Part shown: positions 2,185 through 63,941 of the stretch, piece after piece
Layout: every line of letters begins with the position of its first letter
Position numbering within the stretch: the stretch's first letter is position 1
From: Escherichia phage moha
DNA length: 64,000 nt
Direction: 5' to 3' (one strand)
Sequence record: MN850590.1
Program-made: the position numbers and the translations under genes
The notes under the pieces: model-generated
What the model saw: only the letters and a program-made list of their open reading frames with translations
Told to the model about the DNA's origin: nothing
Database searches by the model: none

Positions 2185-3753
2185 TTAGATGCCTTTTACA
2201 TATACACGGCGGAAGTAAGCGTTCTTACCAAGGCTGTTCAGGATAGATGGCATACCGGACTGGATGCGAGCACCTGGAGCCTGCAGGGAACTTTCAGCAA
2301 ACGGGTTAACACCGATACCGTAACGAGTTTTAAAGCCCATTACCGGCTGGAAGTTCTTAGGATCGGAACCACGCAGCGGGGTAAGTGCAACGTAAGGAGC
2401 ATAGTAAATACCTGCATCCATTTCGTTAGCGCCTTTGTAACCAACGGTGAAGTAATCCTGTTTAGCATACTGGTCGATGTATACGCGGTATTTACCACCA
2501 AGTACACCGGCAAATACAGACTTAGTAGTGTCGGTATTAAAACCAGAAGCCAGGCCCTGTGCAGCGTAAGAAATACCAGTATCAACTGAAGCCAGTACGT
2601 TAACTACGTTACGGGAAGCGATAATGAAGTTACCTTCACCACGACCGGTTTGACGAGCAATTTCAACTGCTTCTTTATCAATCTGGAACAACAGAGATTT
2701 AAAGCTTTCACCGGCCCAACGAGCACCACGGATATCAATCGGGTCCTGGAAGTCAAATACACCAGCTTTAGAACCCGGAGTCAGGGTCATACCAGATTTA
2801 CCAACCTGTGCTGAGTAGTTAATCCAATCAACAACTTCACGGTTGATTTCTAGCATAATTTCTGTAGCCAGAATACCGCTCAGTTCAGCATCAGCATCCA
2901 TACCGTGTACTGCACGGAGGTCTTGTGCTAATTCGATAGAGTAAGCAGCTTTCAGCTGGCGAGATTTAGCTTCGATAACTTGTTTATCGATACGGAAGCC
3001 CATTTCATTCCATGGGTTATCGGTAGAACCGTTGAAACCTTCCTGGAGTTCAGCGATAGAAGTAGCCATACCTTCAGCGATTTCTACCAGTGCACCAGCT
3101 TCCATTTGTTTCTTAACTTCTGCATCTAATTTAGCTGCATCAGTTGCACCAGAATCAAGTGTTACGACAGCAGAAGCTTGCAGATATACAGTACCAGTTT
3201 CTTGGAAGAAGTGAGTATAGATATCACCTACAACAGTAGTAGTGTCAGCAGCCAGAGCTGGGAATTTCTTAGCAGCACCCTGACCAGAGAACATCGCGTC
3301 TGGGGCATACATCGGATGGAAAGCTTCTTTAGCGCCAGCAGCGATAGGGTCTTTACCATATACTGCACGGAGAGCAAATACCTGACCGGTCGGGCTGTTC
3401 ATAGGCTGAACACCACAAATATCAAAAGCGATCAGATTAGGAATAGCACGACGAACCATACCCATAACTGCCGGCCCAATTTGGGTTACTGCACCAGAGG
3501 TTTGACCTGCTGCGATGTTCTGAGCATTATAACCATGGTCACCACCAATTTCAGCTTCGGTCAAGAAAGAACCAAATGCCTGAGCGATTTTCTCGTCTTT
3601 ATATTCAGGGGATACTTCGAAATCTTTTTCCTGGTTTTCGAAGATTTTAGCGATAATAGCCTGCTTGCTATTAGCGATTTCCGGCAGGCCTTCACCTTCC
3701 AGCAGTTCTTTCCATTTGTCTACGAGCTGAGCTTTAGTTTTGATAGTAGTCAT
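2185..3753 (-). CDS. 23: major capsid protein gp23
   Basis: 522-aa ORF; the translation is recognisable as T4 gp23 and the length matches (T4 521 aa). Confidence 0.97.
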   Translation of the reverse strand: MTTIKTKAQLVDKWKELLEGEGLPEIANSKQAIIAKIFENQEKDFEVSPEYKDEKIAQAFGSFLTEAEIGGDHGYNAQNIAAGQTSGAVTQIGPAVMGMVRRAIPNLIAFDICGVQPMNSPTGQVFALRAVYGKDPIAAGAKEAFHPMYAPDAMFSGQGAAKKFPALAADTTTVVGDIYTHFFQETGTVYLQASAVVTLDSGATDAAKLDAEVKKQMEAGALVEIAEGMATSIAELQEGFNGSTDNPWNEMGFRIDKQVIEAKSRQLKAAYSIELAQDLRAVHGMDADAELSGILATEIMLEINREVVDWINYSAQVGKSGMTLTPGSKAGVFDFQDPIDIRGARWAGESFKSLLFQIDKEAVEIARQTGRGEGNFIIASRNVVNVLASVDTGISYAAQGLASGFNTDTTKSVFAGVLGGKYRVYIDQYAKQDYFTVGYKGANEMDAGIYYAPYVALTPLRGSDPKNFQPVMGFKTRYGIGVNPFAESSLQAPGARIQSGMPSILNSLGKNAYFRRVYVKGI

Positions 3754-12511: not shown

Positions 12512-13336
12512 TTATTGTTTTCTAGGACCAGGAGGGGTTGGTGGAGTCGGGATTGGAATATCATGAGTATAAGTTTGTTCAACTTCACCATTCCAATCTT
12601 GTGCTTCAACGTCTCTCGGTTTAATTTCTGTATCAACTGATTCAAAAACACTGGCGGCTGTTTGAAGGTCTCGTTCATTAGCATGAAAATCAAGATAAGT
12701 CGTTTTAATAAGGCCTTCAGCTGCGCCTACCGGAGGATACATCCATCCATTTACTTCAAATGTTAATGACCACTCTAAACGTCGACGAGATAAATTATCG
12801 CCGTCTATTTGTTCATCCATTGCTGCTGCCATCCATACGACTTTAATATCCCTTTCAAATGGAATATCCTGCCCATATTGCTCAATCATAGTCGTATTAA
12901 AATGCGGCTGAAAATATGGAATAATTTGCTCAACGATTTGGAACATATCATCTTCATAACGAGTAAAGATGCTCAGTTCAAAAATCATTTTAATTGGTGA
13001 TGGGTTGTATTGGTCTACAATATCCTTAGTCGATTTACTCAAAAGAGAGTTATTCAATATATTCGTTTTAAACGTTGGGTTATAAACGAAATCTACCATT
13101 TGGAGATTTATACGTGGTAGAATAGTTTCGACTTTAGCCACATCTTCTTGTGAGTTTATAGAGGTCCATTTATTAAGTTTCATCATAAAGTGCTCTTTAG
13201 ATGCATACGTAATAGGAACTCTAATTAATTTATTGCCTGTAGACAATTGACGGTTAACTTGGATATTTGAAAACAAATCGCCCATCATTGTGATATATCG
13301 CCTGAACGACGAGTTGTAAAAATAACCAAACATCAT
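12512..13336 (-). CDS. 15: tail sheath stabiliser / tail completion protein gp15
   Basis: 274-aa ORF (T4 gp15 is 272 aa) in the expected position. Confidence 0.88.
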   Translation of the reverse strand: MMFGYFYNSSFRRYITMMGDLFSNIQVNRQLSTGNKLIRVPITYASKEHFMMKLNKWTSINSQEDVAKVETILPRINLQMVDFVYNPTFKTNILNNSLLSKSTKDIVDQYNPSPIKMIFELSIFTRYEDDMFQIVEQIIPYFQPHFNTTMIEQYGQDIPFERDIKVVWMAAAMDEQIDGDNLSRRRLEWSLTFEVNGWMYPPVGAAEGLIKTTYLDFHANERDLQTAASVFESVDTEIKPRDVEAQDWNGEVEQTYTHDIPIPTPPTPPGPRKQ

Positions 13337-25643: not shown

Positions 25644-27613
25644 TGTGAAATAGGCTCCAAATCTATAGTTAAGTACTGAGGACGTAAGTCGTTTTCGAAT
25701 ACGATTAAAGAACCATCCTTTGTAAAAATAATATCATCTGCAGGGTCGGAATAAAGTTCAATTGTTTGAACTTCAAAACGGTCTGAAGTGAGGTCAATTT
25801 TAGCAATGTTCCAATAAATCGAATCGGCAGGATAATTCACTTCACCAATTGAATAGTATTTGTTTCGTCCGTCAGTAACAGTAAGTTTATTAAAATCATT
25901 ACCTGTATAAGGTTGTATATTTTCGTTTTCAACAACATCACCGTCTGCAAATGGACCAATAATAACTTGACCTATGCCACGATCATTACGGTCAGAAGAT
26001 ACTATGCGAACACCGTATTTAATAGTTTCGTTTGCATTTTCTGGATTAGGTCTGTGCGAATCAAACGAGAATATATTAGATTCCATCGATCTATCTTTAA
26101 TCTGATTATTGTATTTAATACCGGCCTCAGGCGTTTTATAGAAGTTTTGTACTTCGCGAACCATTTGAATAGTAGCTGAAGAACCAATAATAGAAATATC
26201 TGCATCATCGACATAAGTTAGCATTTTAGATTTTGCAAACGATGAGTTAAAAATTTCTACATCTTCAATATAATATCGGTCAATTTTATTAATAATTTGC
26301 CCTTCAAGATATTGTTCTGATTCTTGGAGTTTATTCAACGCGTATGTAACTTTGATATTCATTTTGATAAACAAATAATCAGGCGAAATAACAACAGGTG
26401 TAATAGTCCCTAAGTTATAATCATTCAAATAGTTTTTGATATCATCGCGTTGGACAGAAGTCAAATACAATCCAGATTTAGGCTTAGCAGCAATATATGC
26501 GTACCCTGGTTTAGATGAATCTGTGAATGTTTGAACCGCTTGAATAATAGAACCAAACCGCTCAGAAACGAATGTGTCATAGTCGGAAGCGGTTACACAA
26601 CGTTGTTGAGTTTCGCGTTTAATTGTGCCTAATTCGCGGATACGTTCAATATCTTCAGGGTCACCACCGCCGTCGGCCCCAACAAAGTCTGGGTTATTGC
26701 TAGGGTTCTCATTAATATCGATTACCGTGATATTAGCTAATGTATCAGCATAAGAAAATCCTACAGCACCGTTAGCATCTGCGCCATTAGTAGAAATATA
26801 CTCAATTACGATTTTAGAACCCTGAACAGGTTTAAGGCCACCAATATAGTTAGATGTTAACGCACCTTCTGACGTGTTAATAGAGATTTCGCCTTCACCA
26901 AAATAAAATTCGGTGTTCCCATCAACTGTTTCACGCATATAATAGATTGTTGACGTAGAACCAGCGTGAACCATCGACTTACGAGTCCAGTTAATCCATT
27001 CTGCTCCGTCAACATACAACTTAACCAAATTACGGTCAATATTCTTATCACGAATAATGATAGGTTTTAATCTATCAAATGTTAATTCAGTGCGAACAAT
27101 ACGTCCTTGAGCTAATCGAAGACGTGGAAAATATTGGTTATTTTTATCTTTAACTACAATGACATCTTCGGTAGAAACAAAGTTATACGGGTTAACAGAA
27201 GTATCTTTAGCGTATGCTAAGAAACGAGTGCCACGTGGAATGGTGATATAGTTTCTATTTAATGCATCCGTACATGTGAGCATAATTTCTGTTTGTGCTG
27301 CTGATTTAGATGAAGGCAGATATCCGTTATCTTGAGCCGCTTGTACAACAGAGCTACGCAAGTTTGCAGTGCGCATAAAACTTTCATACACTGCACTATT
27401 ACTGAACTGTTGGATGTAAAGAGTGTTATATGCTAAAAGGTCACACAATACGTTTAAGCGTGAACCTTCAAAATCATAATCAAGAAATTCATTCTGCCCA
27501 TTAAGCCATTCAATAATGTTCTGTTTGATTTCGGCAAATGTGCCCCCGATAAAAATCTCGGGAATAGCATTCGCTGTTCGTGTTAATTGATAATTTACAG
27601 GAGTGTTTGCCAT
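25640..27613 (-). CDS. 6: baseplate wedge protein gp6
   Basis: The ORF track gives 676 aa; the start matching T4 gp6 is the internal Met (MANTPVNYQLTRTA...), giving about 657 aa. Confidence 0.9.
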   Translation of the reverse strand: MANTPVNYQLTRTANAIPEIFIGGTFAEIKQNIIEWLNGQNEFLDYDFEGSRLNVLCDLLAYNTLYIQQFSNSAVYESFMRTANLRSSVVQAAQDNGYLPSSKSAAQTEIMLTCTDALNRNYITIPRGTRFLAYAKDTSVNPYNFVSTEDVIVVKDKNNQYFPRLRLAQGRIVRTELTFDRLKPIIIRDKNIDRNLVKLYVDGAEWINWTRKSMVHAGSTSTIYYMRETVDGNTEFYFGEGEISINTSEGALTSNYIGGLKPVQGSKIVIEYISTNGADANGAVGFSYADTLANITVIDINENPSNNPDFVGADGGGDPEDIERIRELGTIKRETQQRCVTASDYDTFVSERFGSIIQAVQTFTDSSKPGYAYIAAKPKSGLYLTSVQRDDIKNYLNDYNLGTITPVVISPDYLFIKMNIKVTYALNKLQESEQYLEGQIINKIDRYYIEDVEIFNSSFAKSKMLTYVDDADISIIGSSATIQMVREVQNFYKTPEAGIKYNNQIKDRSMESNIFSFDSHRPNPENANETIKYGVRIVSSDRNDRGIGQVIIGPFADGDVVENENIQPYTGNDFNKLTVTDGRNKYYSIGEVNYPADSIYWNIAKIDLTSDRFEVQTIELYSDPADDIIFTKDGSLIVFENDLRPQYLTIDLEPISQ

Positions 27614-62168: not shown

Positions 62169-62525
62169 ATGACATATTCATTAAATCTTAAAGATTTCCA
62201 AGATGTATACGAAGTTTGTGCCAATGAACTTGGTCCTGATGCTCCAACTATTATTGAAGTTTTAAATGTGCTCCCTTCATCATTAGCTTACGAAGCCAAA
62301 TCATGGGGATGGAACGACACTGTCGTTCGTGATGACCTTTACGTCCTGATGAACGACATGATGGTTAAAAAGGCAGAACCGGTTGCACCAATGGTTACCA
62401 TTACCGTTGAAGAATATAATCGCCTGCAAGCCATTGAAGAGCTTCTGTGGAACATTGAATGTGACCTGCCGTCAGGGCTAGAATCCTGGATTGATTATGA
62501 AGAGCTCAATAAACTCCGGGGTTAA
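62169..62525 (+). CDS. hypothetical protein (118 aa)
   Basis: ORF in the co-directional cluster. Confidence 0.5.
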   Translation: MTYSLNLKDFQDVYEVCANELGPDAPTIIEVLNVLPSSLAYEAKSWGWNDTVVRDDLYVLMNDMMVKKAEPVAPMVTITVEEYNRLQAIEELLWNIECDLPSGLESWIDYEELNKLRG

Positions 62526-62653
62526 GCCATGGTATTCGGCTCGATGGGAGACAGTCGAGCCAGACGTCGAAACAGTTTACAACGACGAAGAAACGTGTTA
62601 TGATGAACCTTCAATAAATGAATTAATTGATATGGAGATGGGAAGAGATTATT

Positions 62654-62824
62654 ATGCAAGTTAAATTATTGTACCGTTTATTAAAAAGTGGCGAACACGA
62701 TTGGTATTTGCTTATTAAAACCGATCCGAATTTTTTCTCTGGACAACCATTTACAGTTCGTCCTACTAAACGTCAGCTTCGCAAAGCTAAACGTTCTCAT
62801 CGTAACTTTTATAGAGAATATTGA
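62654..62824 (+). CDS. small basic protein, paralog A (56 aa)
   Basis: C-terminal ...FTVRPTKRQLRKAKRSHRNFYREY resembles the ORF at 63249. Confidence 0.4.
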   Translation: MQVKLLYRLLKSGEHDWYLLIKTDPNFFSGQPFTVRPTKRQLRKAKRSHRNFYREY

Positions 62825-62825
62825 T

Positions 62826-63239
62826 ATGAATATTTCTGAAACTCGCGGTAAATGGTTCAAGATTGTTAAAGAAGATGAAGAACTACAAGTCAAGTTTCCT
62901 GAATTAAAGAAAGATACGATCATCAAGGTAATTGGTACTACTACCGAAGATGGTTATGGCGACCATGGCATTATTGAAGTGATGTTGAACACAGGTGAGA
63001 AACTTTGCATCTATGACCGTGATACTTCTCTTTGGTGCTTCTGGGAATCCCATTCAATAGATGAACTCGAAGAAATTGACCAAGTAGTTTGTGATGGTGG
63101 ACTTGGCGAATTCGAAGGTGAACGTATTTCTTATGCTTTAGCTAAATTAGCCGCCCAAGAAAATAATGACGGTTATGAAGGTAATCTGATGCAAGCCGCA
63201 GCGGAATACATTGAATATTTAGAAAGACGTTTAAGTTAA
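62826..63239 (+). CDS. hypothetical acidic protein (137 aa)
   Basis: ATG adjacent to the upstream stop. Confidence 0.5.
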   Translation: MNISETRGKWFKIVKEDEELQVKFPELKKDTIIKVIGTTTEDGYGDHGIIEVMLNTGEKLCIYDRDTSLWCFWESHSIDELEEIDQVVCDGGLGEFEGERISYALAKLAAQENNDGYEGNLMQAAAEYIEYLERRLS

Positions 63240-63248
63240 AGGTTTATT

Positions 63249-63428
63249 ATGAAAACTGAACTATTTTATGGCGAAAGAACAAACGGCCAAAAATCCTGGA
63301 AATTTATTATGATTGGGGCTCCAAACAATCCGAACATGAGGACTTCAATCATTTCGGTAACACGTCCTACTAAAAGAATGATTCGACAGTATAAACGTTT
63401 TCATCGAGACTTTTATAACGTTTACTAA
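63249..63428 (+). CDS. small basic protein, paralog B (59 aa)
   Basis: C-terminal ...ISVTRPTKRMIRQYKRFHRDFYNVY; below the 60-aa ORF-track cutoff, found by manual translation. Confidence 0.4.
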   Translation: MKTELFYGERTNGQKSWKFIMIGAPNNPNMRTSIISVTRPTKRMIRQYKRFHRDFYNVY

Positions 63429-63430
63429 AT

Positions 63431-63462
63431 TATAAATACCCTTATCTATATATGGTAAGGGT
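63431..63462 (+). promoter_or_regulatory. gene 49 late promoter plus Shine-Dalgarno-sequestering hairpin
   Basis: TATAAATA at 63431-63438, immediately followed by ACCCTTA (63438-63444), which pairs with TAAGGGT (63456-63462) containing the Shine-Dalgarno. Confidence 0.7.
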
Positions 63463-63467
63463 TTATT

Positions 63468-63941
63468 ATGTTATTATCTGGCAAATTATACAAAGAAGAA
63501 AAACAAAAATTTTATGATGCACAGAATGGTAAGTGTCCTATTTGCCACCGTGAATTAGACTCTGATGTTCAAGGTAACCATCTTGACCACGACCACGAAT
63601 TAAACGGGCCAAAAGCCGGTAGAGTTCGTGGATTACTCTGTAATCTGTGCAACGCAGCAGAAGGCCAAATGAAGCATAAGTTCAATCGTTCCGGTCTTAA
63701 AGGACGTGATGTTGACTACCTCGAATGGCTTGAAGCTCTTCTTGCTTATTTGAAACAAGATTATTCTGATAATAATATCCATCCTAATTTTGTTCCAGAC
63801 AAAACTAAAGAGTTCTCAAGACTAGGTAAAGAGGAAATGATGGCTGAGATGCTTCAAAGAGGATTTGAATATAATGAATCTGACACCAAAACACAGTTAA
63901 TAGCTTCATTTAAGAAGCAACTTAGAAAGAGTTTAAAATGA
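63468..63941 (+). CDS. 49: endonuclease VII (Holliday junction resolvase)
   Basis: 157-aa ORF; translation MLLSGKLYKEEKQKFYDAQNGKCPICHRELDSDVQGNHLDHDHELNG... is near-identical to T4 gp49. Confidence 0.95.
   Translation: MLLSGKLYKEEKQKFYDAQNGKCPICHRELDSDVQGNHLDHDHELNGPKAGRVRGLLCNLCNAAEGQMKHKFNRSGLKGRDVDYLEWLEALLAYLKQDYSDNNIHPNFVPDKTKEFSRLGKEEMMAEMLQRGFEYNESDTKTQLIASFKKQLRKSLK

Follow-up and report, generated by a model that had tools for sequence, protein, structure and literature searches.

In the present study, a locus in which two small basic open reading frames flank an acidic one was analysed in a 64,000-nucleotide stretch of Escherichia phage moha (sequence record MN850590.1), hereafter called the window. 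The window comes from an RB69-like (Mosigvirus) T-even phage. Over the 1.9 kb around the feature, identity reaches 98.5-98.6% with Escherichia phage WFbE185 and with Shigella phages JK36 and JK45, and 95-97% with many Mosigvirus (RB69-like) phages. The gene order on the plus strand is nrdC, a 49.3-like ORF, a 118-aa ORF, a 49.1 homologue, the first small frame (copy 1), pinA, the second small frame (copy 2) and gene 49, and both copies sit inside the variable segment that runs from nrdC to gene 49 (Table 1). RB69 lists 49.1, RB69ORF089c, pin, RB69ORF087c and 49 at the same locus, and the span there is also 875 nt. The 49.1 homologue is 71% identical to T4 49.1 by tblastn and is labelled gp49.1-like in the records of JK45 and SA79RD, and the gene 49 product, which is 90% identical to T4 gp49, marks the fixed downstream anchor of the locus. 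An earlier note had described two small basic ORFs around an acidic ORF of 137 aa, and their coordinates, plus strand and sizes were confirmed. It had also remarked that the 59-aa frame lay under the length cutoff of the ORF track; this was only a matter of the threshold supplied, and public records do annotate the gene.

The genes lie close together. The first 11 nt of copy 1 overlap the end of 49.1, the pinA ATG stands one base past the copy 1 stop (TGAtATG), and copy 2 begins 9 nt past the pinA stop with an AAGG Shine-Dalgarno sequence ahead of it. The candidate promoter within 49.1 matched the consensus at 10 of 12 positions in a consensus scan, and the SA79RD annotation carries a T4 early-promoter-like site at the equivalent position. 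This packing, together with the early-promoter-like site, suggests that copy 1, pinA and copy 2 would be made early, as one unit from the early-type promoter. At the other end, the hairpin ahead of gene 49 (RNA fold of -12.8 kcal/mol, z=-2.4) is kept in T4, PP01, p000v and APCEc01 and forms the downstream boundary of the variable cassette. A passage of PMC2988022 that draws on Barth et al. 1988 for gene 49 describes sequestration of the ribosome-binding site, in addition to a late promoter, among T4 late genes.

Table 1. Genes and signals from the 49.1 homologue to gene 49 (positions are those of the window).
Feature	Position	Strand	Remarks
49.1 homologue	62497..62664	+	55 aa from ATG; shares 11 nt with the 5' end of copy 1
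Sigma-70 / T4-early-type promoter-like site	62576..62604	+	TTTACA-17-TATGAT with TG upstream; within 49.1, shortly 5' of copy 1
DUF7279 copy 1	62654..62824	+	56 aa, ATG start, pI 10.5
pinA, putative host Lon protease inhibitor	62826..63239	+	137 aa, pI 4.4
DUF7279 copy 2	63249..63428	+	59 aa, ATG start, pI 10.7
T4 late-promoter box TATAAATA for gene 49	63431..63438	+	Read from the sequence; annotated at the equivalent SA79RD position
Hairpin, nine pairs	63438..63462	+	3' arm covers the ribosome-binding site of gene 49; found by terminator-like scan
Gene 49, endonuclease VII	63468..63941	+	Pfam Endonuclease_7 and Endonuc-dimeris

The acidic middle frame is, judged by its sequence, the orthologue of pinA, whose product would inhibit the host Lon protease. 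It matched Pfam Inhibitor_I24 with E=3.5e-47 (160 bits against a cut-off of 27, profile positions 2-136 of 136) and phrog_2167 with E=4e-51, and it is labelled pin in relatives. It lies upstream of gene 49, in synteny with the pin-49 order of T4, and is 50% identical to T4 PinA. PinA binds Lon and blocks the breakdown of folded substrates, and such biochemistry is known only for T4 PinA (PMC8835725).

The two flanking frames are anciently diverged paralogs of one family, DUF7279 (Pfam PF23945) or phrog_3272. The earlier note had noticed related basic motifs at their C-termini, and on pairwise alignment the similarity proved to be significant, since BLASTP aligned the two proteins over their full length with 21 of 59 identities (36%, E=4e-11) and the same two profiles were shared. 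The N-terminal halves without the basic tail still aligned on their own (E=1e-4), and the homology is therefore more than a common basic tail. Against the PF23945 gathering cut-off of 24.5 bits, copy 1 scored 53.4 bits (E=2.5e-14) and copy 2 scored 53.1 bits (E=3e-14), both covering profile positions 2-53 of 53. The matches to phrog_3272 (profile 1-59 of 59) reached E=3.2e-26 for residues 1-56 of copy 1 and E=3.8e-30 for residues 1-59 of copy 2. In a 17-sequence alignment both copies carry the features internal to the family, namely the conserved G13 and W17 and the motif RPTK..(I/L)R..KR.HR.F. By its position copy 1 appears to be the equivalent of RB69ORF089c. Copy 2 probably corresponds to RB69ORF087c, since the SA79RD record calls its own copy, which is 100% identical, similar to that RB69 protein; copy 2 is also 100% identical in WFL6982 and WFbE185. 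Between the window copies and the catalogued entries (PF23945, phrog_3272, RB69ORF089c and RB69ORF087c) we found no difference, and the family stands there with no assigned function. The idea of a small basic protein family put forward in the earlier note has thus held, and so has the conservation of both ORFs, which are labelled as hypothetical proteins in the records of close relatives. The finding itself is ordinary, as the family is already catalogued in Pfam and phrog_3272 and annotated in RB69 without known function, and it changes the annotation little: RB69 and dozens of relatives list these genes as hypothetical proteins.

Both copies are real genes. In Tequatrovirus and Dhakavirus the downstream type retains 51-60% amino-acid identity, and it was shown to be under purifying selection. 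Pairwise dN/dS was 0.12-0.26 between copy 2 of the window and these homologues, with synonymous sites saturated in this comparison, and 0.02-0.25 among the homologues themselves; over all the copy 2 homologues compared, synonymous sites ranged from moderately diverged to saturated. For copy 1, dN/dS was mostly 0.1-0.5, with a few pairs higher or undefined, and its orthologues are too alike for a strong test. A search for further copies had been proposed in the earlier note; the six-frame translation was scanned by hmmsearch with one narrow and one broad profile and also with two motif regular expressions, and no third copy came up in the 64-kb window. The two best sub-threshold matches, at 13010-13120 and 25913-26179, are antisense ORFs within large structural genes, and they were therefore set aside as chance. 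Among the tblastn matches listed for related phages, no record had more than two such places.

All the family members found belong to T-even-type phages of Enterobacterales, in Mosigvirus, Tequatrovirus, Dhakavirus, Gelderlandvirus and Moonvirus. Among 1.84 billion representative proteins, a profile search picked out about five small proteins that are genuine relatives, its long multi-stretch matches being repetitive proteins, and a word-indexed search of 5.8 billion sequences gave 21 proteins, most of them without a name, of which all those with a named source come from T-even-type phages of E. coli or Salmonella. By tblastn against a phage collection, the copy 1 type at 80% identity or more was present in 145 phage records, and all of those inspected were Mosigvirus/RB69-like. 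The copy 2 type was present at this level in 54 phage records and, at 50-60% identity, in a few hundred records of Tequatrovirus and Dhakavirus. Distant members occur in Salmonella phage S16 (Gelderlandvirus) and Citrobacter phage Merlin (Moonvirus); they fall in phrog_15176 and share the motif (K/R)PTK..IR..K(K/R)..R.(F/Y). These phrog_15176 proteins (Merlin gp79 and S16 gp48.2) have the same helix motif as the window copies, the Merlin gene also lies between pin and gene 49, and the BFVD model of the Merlin protein superposes on the model of copy 2 with TM 0.82. They differ in being only 22-31% identical and less basic (pI 8.8-9.6), with a shorter or different N-terminal hairpin. Weaker matches were obtained to phrog_8921, phrog_12748 and phrog_2375. 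Structural matches in BFVD with a probability of at least 0.98 were all uncharacterised proteins, the named ones being from S16, O157 typing phage 3, Merlin and CBH8. Our literature search found no paper mentioning DUF7279 or the RB69 ORF names.

The structures of both copies were modelled with AlphaFold2 on a shallow alignment of 17 sequences. The model of copy 2 (pLDDT 90.5) has strands at 2-9, 15-22 and 31-36 and a helix at 42-58, and that of copy 1 (pLDDT 85.1) has strands at 3-9, 15-24 and 27-33 and a helix at 39-55. Both copies are thus predicted to share a fold of about 55 residues, made of a three-stranded antiparallel sheet and a C-terminal amphipathic helix. On a helical wheel of copy 2, residues K42, R43, R46, K49, R50 and R53 fall inside one arc of 120 degrees, and M44, I45, Y48, F51, H52, F55, Y56, V58 and Y59 lie on the opposite side. 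In this model the helix would lie on the sheet with its hydrophobic and aromatic face, and the opposite face would present a fixed basic stripe. The 17-sequence alignment shows no variation at R46, K49, R50 and R53 and almost none at K42; in a wider alignment, positions 42, 46, 49 and 50 are Lys or Arg in 8/8 family members. Across genera, at identities of 22-60%, both the motif and the predicted fold are retained. It speaks against nucleic acid as the ligand of the stripe that an acidic protein could be bound equally well, PinA with its pI of 4.4 being one example.

Small DNA-binding domains of similar size, basic and with the same order of secondary structure are known, such as the N-terminal domains of the Tn916 and lambda integrases, AP2/ERF and chromo/Sso7d-like domains, and in these the DNA contacts come from the sheet and not from the helix. 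None of them was among the Foldseek matches in the PDB, and we have no evidence that DUF7279 belongs with them. Foldseek against the PDB returned nothing significant (best E 0.6); matches to Pur-alpha and dsRBD reached a TM of 0.3-0.45, and no superposition on the solved nucleic-acid-binding folds considered (Pur-alpha, dsRBD, integrase-N/AP2-like) was obtained in that search. A sequence search of the PDB gave a single spurious match to a designed protein, and the PADLOC and NCBIfam models for defence and anti-defence gave no families at E<=1.

The locus has been rearranged repeatedly. In phiE142 and at least 22 other Mosigvirus isolates, a single 56-aa gene follows copy 1 as far as ...HRNFY and continues with the NVY-stop and the downstream flank of copy 2, and pinA is gone. 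This chimera was found as one uninterrupted match in at least 27 records, from about 23 distinct phages. Its junction falls in ACTTTTATA, which is common to the 3' ends of both copies, and because the two genes are direct repeats this sequence acted as a crossover site. The crossover deleted pinA, and what remains in many Mosigvirus isolates is a chimera that keeps the reading frame. The locus is in this respect a real-genome example of how diverged direct-repeat genes let a phage lose the anti-host gene pinA through a microhomology of 9 nt with the reading frame intact. DNA identity between the copies is limited to short stretches (12, 9 and 8 nt), the identical sequences common to both being CGTCCTACTAAA, TAAACGTT, TCATCG and ACTTTTATA.

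A different event is seen in T4. Compared with PP01, T4 has a clean deletion of 137 bp, by which the pin stop codon and the first ~43 DUF7279 codons are lost and the last 15 DUF7279 codons are joined in frame to PinA (...SFSDR-MIQQYKRLHQMFYNT). T4 PinA (161 aa) hence ends in 15 residues derived from a DUF7279 gene that T4 has otherwise lost, whereas PinA of the window (137 aa) ends before the T4-type tail and DUF7279 stays a separate gene. The fusion is widespread in Tequatrovirus (T2, T4, phiD1, PST, slur04 and others). In the T4 tail R46 and R53 are replaced by Gln, while both Arg are present in 17/17 aligned family members. The T4 PinA used in all the biochemistry of Lon inhibition thus has a foreign tail of 15 residues, and this is relevant to modelling or truncating the protein. 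In L012-type Tequatrovirus phages a second fusion variant (...SFSDQKIRQYKRLHQMFYNT) is followed by a remnant of ~35 nt of the pin 3' end and then by a complete DUF7279 gene, an arrangement that looks like the product of an unequal crossover. In S16, gp48.2 joins the first 14 residues of pin to ~37 C-terminal residues of a Merlin-type DUF7279 protein.

These rearrangements agree with the plasticity known from T4-type hyperplastic regions. The locus resembles the PeSL shuffling of such regions in that small ORFs with no known function are gained and lost between very close relatives within a variable region between conserved genes, and in having an early-promoter-like site upstream of copy 1 and a stem-loop after copy 2. 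It differs in that the junctions lie in coding repeats or in microhomologies of 3-9 nt and not in promoter or stem-loop motifs, and in that the downstream stem-loop is here the translational hairpin of gene 49.

The distribution of the copies and of pin among related phages is a mosaic. T4 (apart from its tail) and CGG4-1 have pin without either flanking copy. APCEc01 and p000v have copy 1 and pin only, copy 2 being cleanly missing between the pin stop and the late-promoter box. PP01, Merlin and Dhakavirus have pin with the copy 2 type only, and in Dhakavirus the copy follows a pin that is split into two genes with their order swapped. In S16 an upstream copy overlaps 49.1 by 11 nt, just as in the window, and a downstream relic is present too; the downstream position is common to at least four genera. 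Two assignments in S16 were considered. The upstream gene, gp48.1, might be taken as the orthologue of copy 1 from the overlap, but its sequence is unsupportive (24% identity, against 35% to copy 2); and gp48.3, a 116-aa protein encoded between the two DUF7279-like genes, was dropped as a pin homologue, since it has no BLASTP similarity to pin and falls in phrog_13441. Since either or both copies are missing from close relatives, both were shown to be dispensable.

A role in binding nucleic acid fits the predicted fold and the charge pattern. We suggest that these are dispensable early accessory proteins, and that the ligand of the conserved basic helix face would be a polyanion, with RNA or DNA the most probable; as a whole we give this reading an even chance of being right. 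Such proteins might modulate some host or phage nucleic-acid transaction in a non-essential way. This is a first hypothesis from structure and charge for a family that carries no functional annotation, as searches of the PDB, Foldseek, PADLOC, NCBIfam and the literature found neither an annotated nor an experimental function for any family member.

Another explanation places the DUF7279 proteins in the PinA/Lon pathway, with the basic and aromatic C-terminal helix binding either acidic PinA as a partner or stabiliser, or Lon as a degron-like decoy. It would account for the persistence of these genes beside pinA and for the joining of their helix to PinA. The downstream copy adjoins pin in Mosigvirus, Tequatrovirus and Moonvirus, stands as a relic in Gelderlandvirus and lies beside the split pin in Dhakavirus. 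PinA of T4, T2 and many Tequatrovirus phages ends in the 15-residue DUF7279 helix as an in-frame fusion, a second junction variant exists alongside a full-length copy in the L012-type phages, and the charges of the copies and of PinA are opposite (pI 10.5-10.7 against 4.4). The Lon degron sul20 ends in a basic and aromatic stretch, ...KIHSNLYH, which is loosely like ...KRFHRDFYNVY. Gene order is, however, kept genome-wide in T-even phages, and adjacency to pin is therefore weak evidence. Pin also occurs without any copy (in T4 apart from its tail, and in CGG4-1) and copies occur without pin (in the phiE142-type chimeras and in S16), and the Gln residues at R46 and R53 in the T4 tail look like relaxed constraint and not like retained function. 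For these reasons we regard a role in this pathway as unlikely. The stronger form, in which the DUF7279 proteins would be functional partners in the PinA/Lon axis and use the basic/aromatic helix either as a decoy that engages Lon or as a cofactor of PinA, seems to us quite unlikely. If it were true, the T4 PinA tail would be a captured DUF7279 module contributing to Lon inhibition, and the textbook inhibitor would be a natural fusion of two genes for which RB69-type phages use three separate proteins.

The rearrangements also bear on an explanation in which the two ORFs matter mainly as DNA, that is, as repeated linkers for swapping or losing the pin cassette in a PeSL-like manner, with peptides of little function. 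At least four structural variants have arisen by recombination in or beside these genes (the copy 1/copy 2 chimera, the T4 pin::tail fusion, the S16 fusion and the L012 arrangement), and T4-type hyperplastic regions are known for modular shuffling at short conserved motifs (PMC2839356, PMC4122927). Yet the crossovers used microhomologies of at most 9 nt and not long repeats, the motif and the confidently predicted fold are kept at 22-60% identity across genera, and a dN/dS of 0.02-0.26, with synonymous sites diverging up to saturation, points to purifying selection on the protein. Because of this constraint at the protein level, we consider a role as a pure recombination handle improbable. As to the origin of the pair, the earlier note had suggested a local duplication around an inserted gene, and homologous direct repeats on the same strand immediately around one gene are what a recent tandem duplication, split later by insertion of the acidic gene, would leave. 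Such a history is highly improbable in our judgement. The copies share only 36% amino-acid identity and no extended DNA identity, synonymous sites are saturated between copy 2 of the window and its Tequatrovirus and Dhakavirus homologues, and pinA is a standard T-even gene, present also in phages that lack both copies. The downstream position recurs in at least four genera, and the upstream copy of S16 has the same 49.1 overlap. The only tandem-like state with a single copy that was observed, the pin-less one of phiE142 and its relatives, is a derived deletion chimera and not the ancestral form. Given the mosaic distribution of the copies and of pin, the two flanking copies are either old or recurrent.

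The last 15 residues of the reference T4 PinA (161 aa), MIQQYKRLHQMFYNT, are the C-terminal helix of a gene of DUF7279, the family (PF23945) whose two paralogs, copy 1 and copy 2, flank pinA in the window. Comparison of T4 with PP01 shows that this DUF7279 tail was joined in frame to PinA by a 137-bp deletion, and the same T4-type fusion allele was found in T2, phiD1, PST and many more phages. At two positions of the tail, T4 PinA carries Gln, while Arg was found in all of the aligned DUF7279 members (17 of 17).

A pin::DUF7279-tail fusion with another junction was present in some Tequatrovirus phages, including SHFML-11, G4500 and the phage represented by comparison locus L012. This arrangement, in which the fusion and a remnant of the pin 3' end are followed by an intact DUF7279 gene, looks like the product of unequal crossover or of partial duplication. 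In Salmonella phage S16, gp48.2 is a fusion in which the first 14 residues of pin precede the C-terminal part of a DUF7279 of the Merlin type. An upstream DUF7279, gp48.1, is also present in S16, and the two are separated by a 116-aa gene that is unrelated (phrog_13441). The next gene in S16 encodes a SegE-like GIY-YIG endonuclease, at the position that gene 49 occupies in CGG4-1. In Dhakavirus, pin appears to have been split into two genes with their order swapped. The first of them, of 57 aa, matches the C-terminal region of PinA (phrog_9092), and the second, of 100 aa, matches its N-terminal region (phrog_16960).

Rearranged pin and DUF7279 genes in related phages, with positions counted within each comparison locus (L)
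Feature	Position	Remark
PinA::DUF7279 tail, T4	L003 (NC_000866) 2398-2449	compared with PP01, L004 1995-2177
L012-type fusion locus	L012 2554-3270	pin::DUF7279 tail, then ~35-nt pin 3' remnant, then full DUF7279 gene
Salmonella phage S16 locus	L021 2501-3197	
CGG4-1 comparison locus	L022 1810-2244	
Dhakavirus, apparent split pin	L005 (JS10) 1329-1804; L018 and L019 2547-2971	
Copy 1/copy 2 chimeric gene, phiE142	L006 (= L020) 1801-1971	

In at least 23 distinct Mosigvirus isolates, pinA was wholly absent and one chimeric copy 1/copy 2 gene was found, with the crossover point inside the 9-nt ACTTTTATA common to both copies. Thus, the Lon inhibitor is often dispensed with by natural RB69-like phages.

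All of the indels seen at the pinA locus share a conserved right-hand limit, a 9-bp hairpin (-12.8 kcal/mol) which adjoins the late-promoter box TATAAATA (window 63431-63468) and whose 3' arm covers the ribosome-binding site of gene 49. The box and hairpin are consistent with the scheme described for T4 (PMC2988022), in which only late transcripts initiated inside the hairpin are translated.

Upstream of 49.1, the C-terminal ~55 residues of the 118-aa ORF (window 62169-62525) matched phrog_3402 (E=1e-32), labelled 'antitoxin from a toxin-antitoxin system', and this part is a separate 56-aa gene in PP01 (L004 929-1099). A weak match, below threshold, to the T7 gp5.9 RecBCD inhibitor (E=0.015) was also obtained. 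The region may represent a further fused module, either accessory or anti-defence in kind.

In the metagenomic contig L010 (~2998-3030), a T-run near the start of the copy 2 homologue has one T more than the window; this would cause a frameshift, and may be a sequencing error or the mark of a pseudogene. Product names in ESCO10 (OM386655, L007) look wrong across the whole locus: the 474-nt gene 49 homologue is named 'hypothetical protein', a 'Frd3 domain' label sits on a PinA fragment, and replication-protein names have been given to small ORFs. Likewise, the RefSeq name 'ribonucleotide reductase' for the 106-aa gene 49.2 of T4 and PP01 (L003, L004) looks like annotation carry-over.
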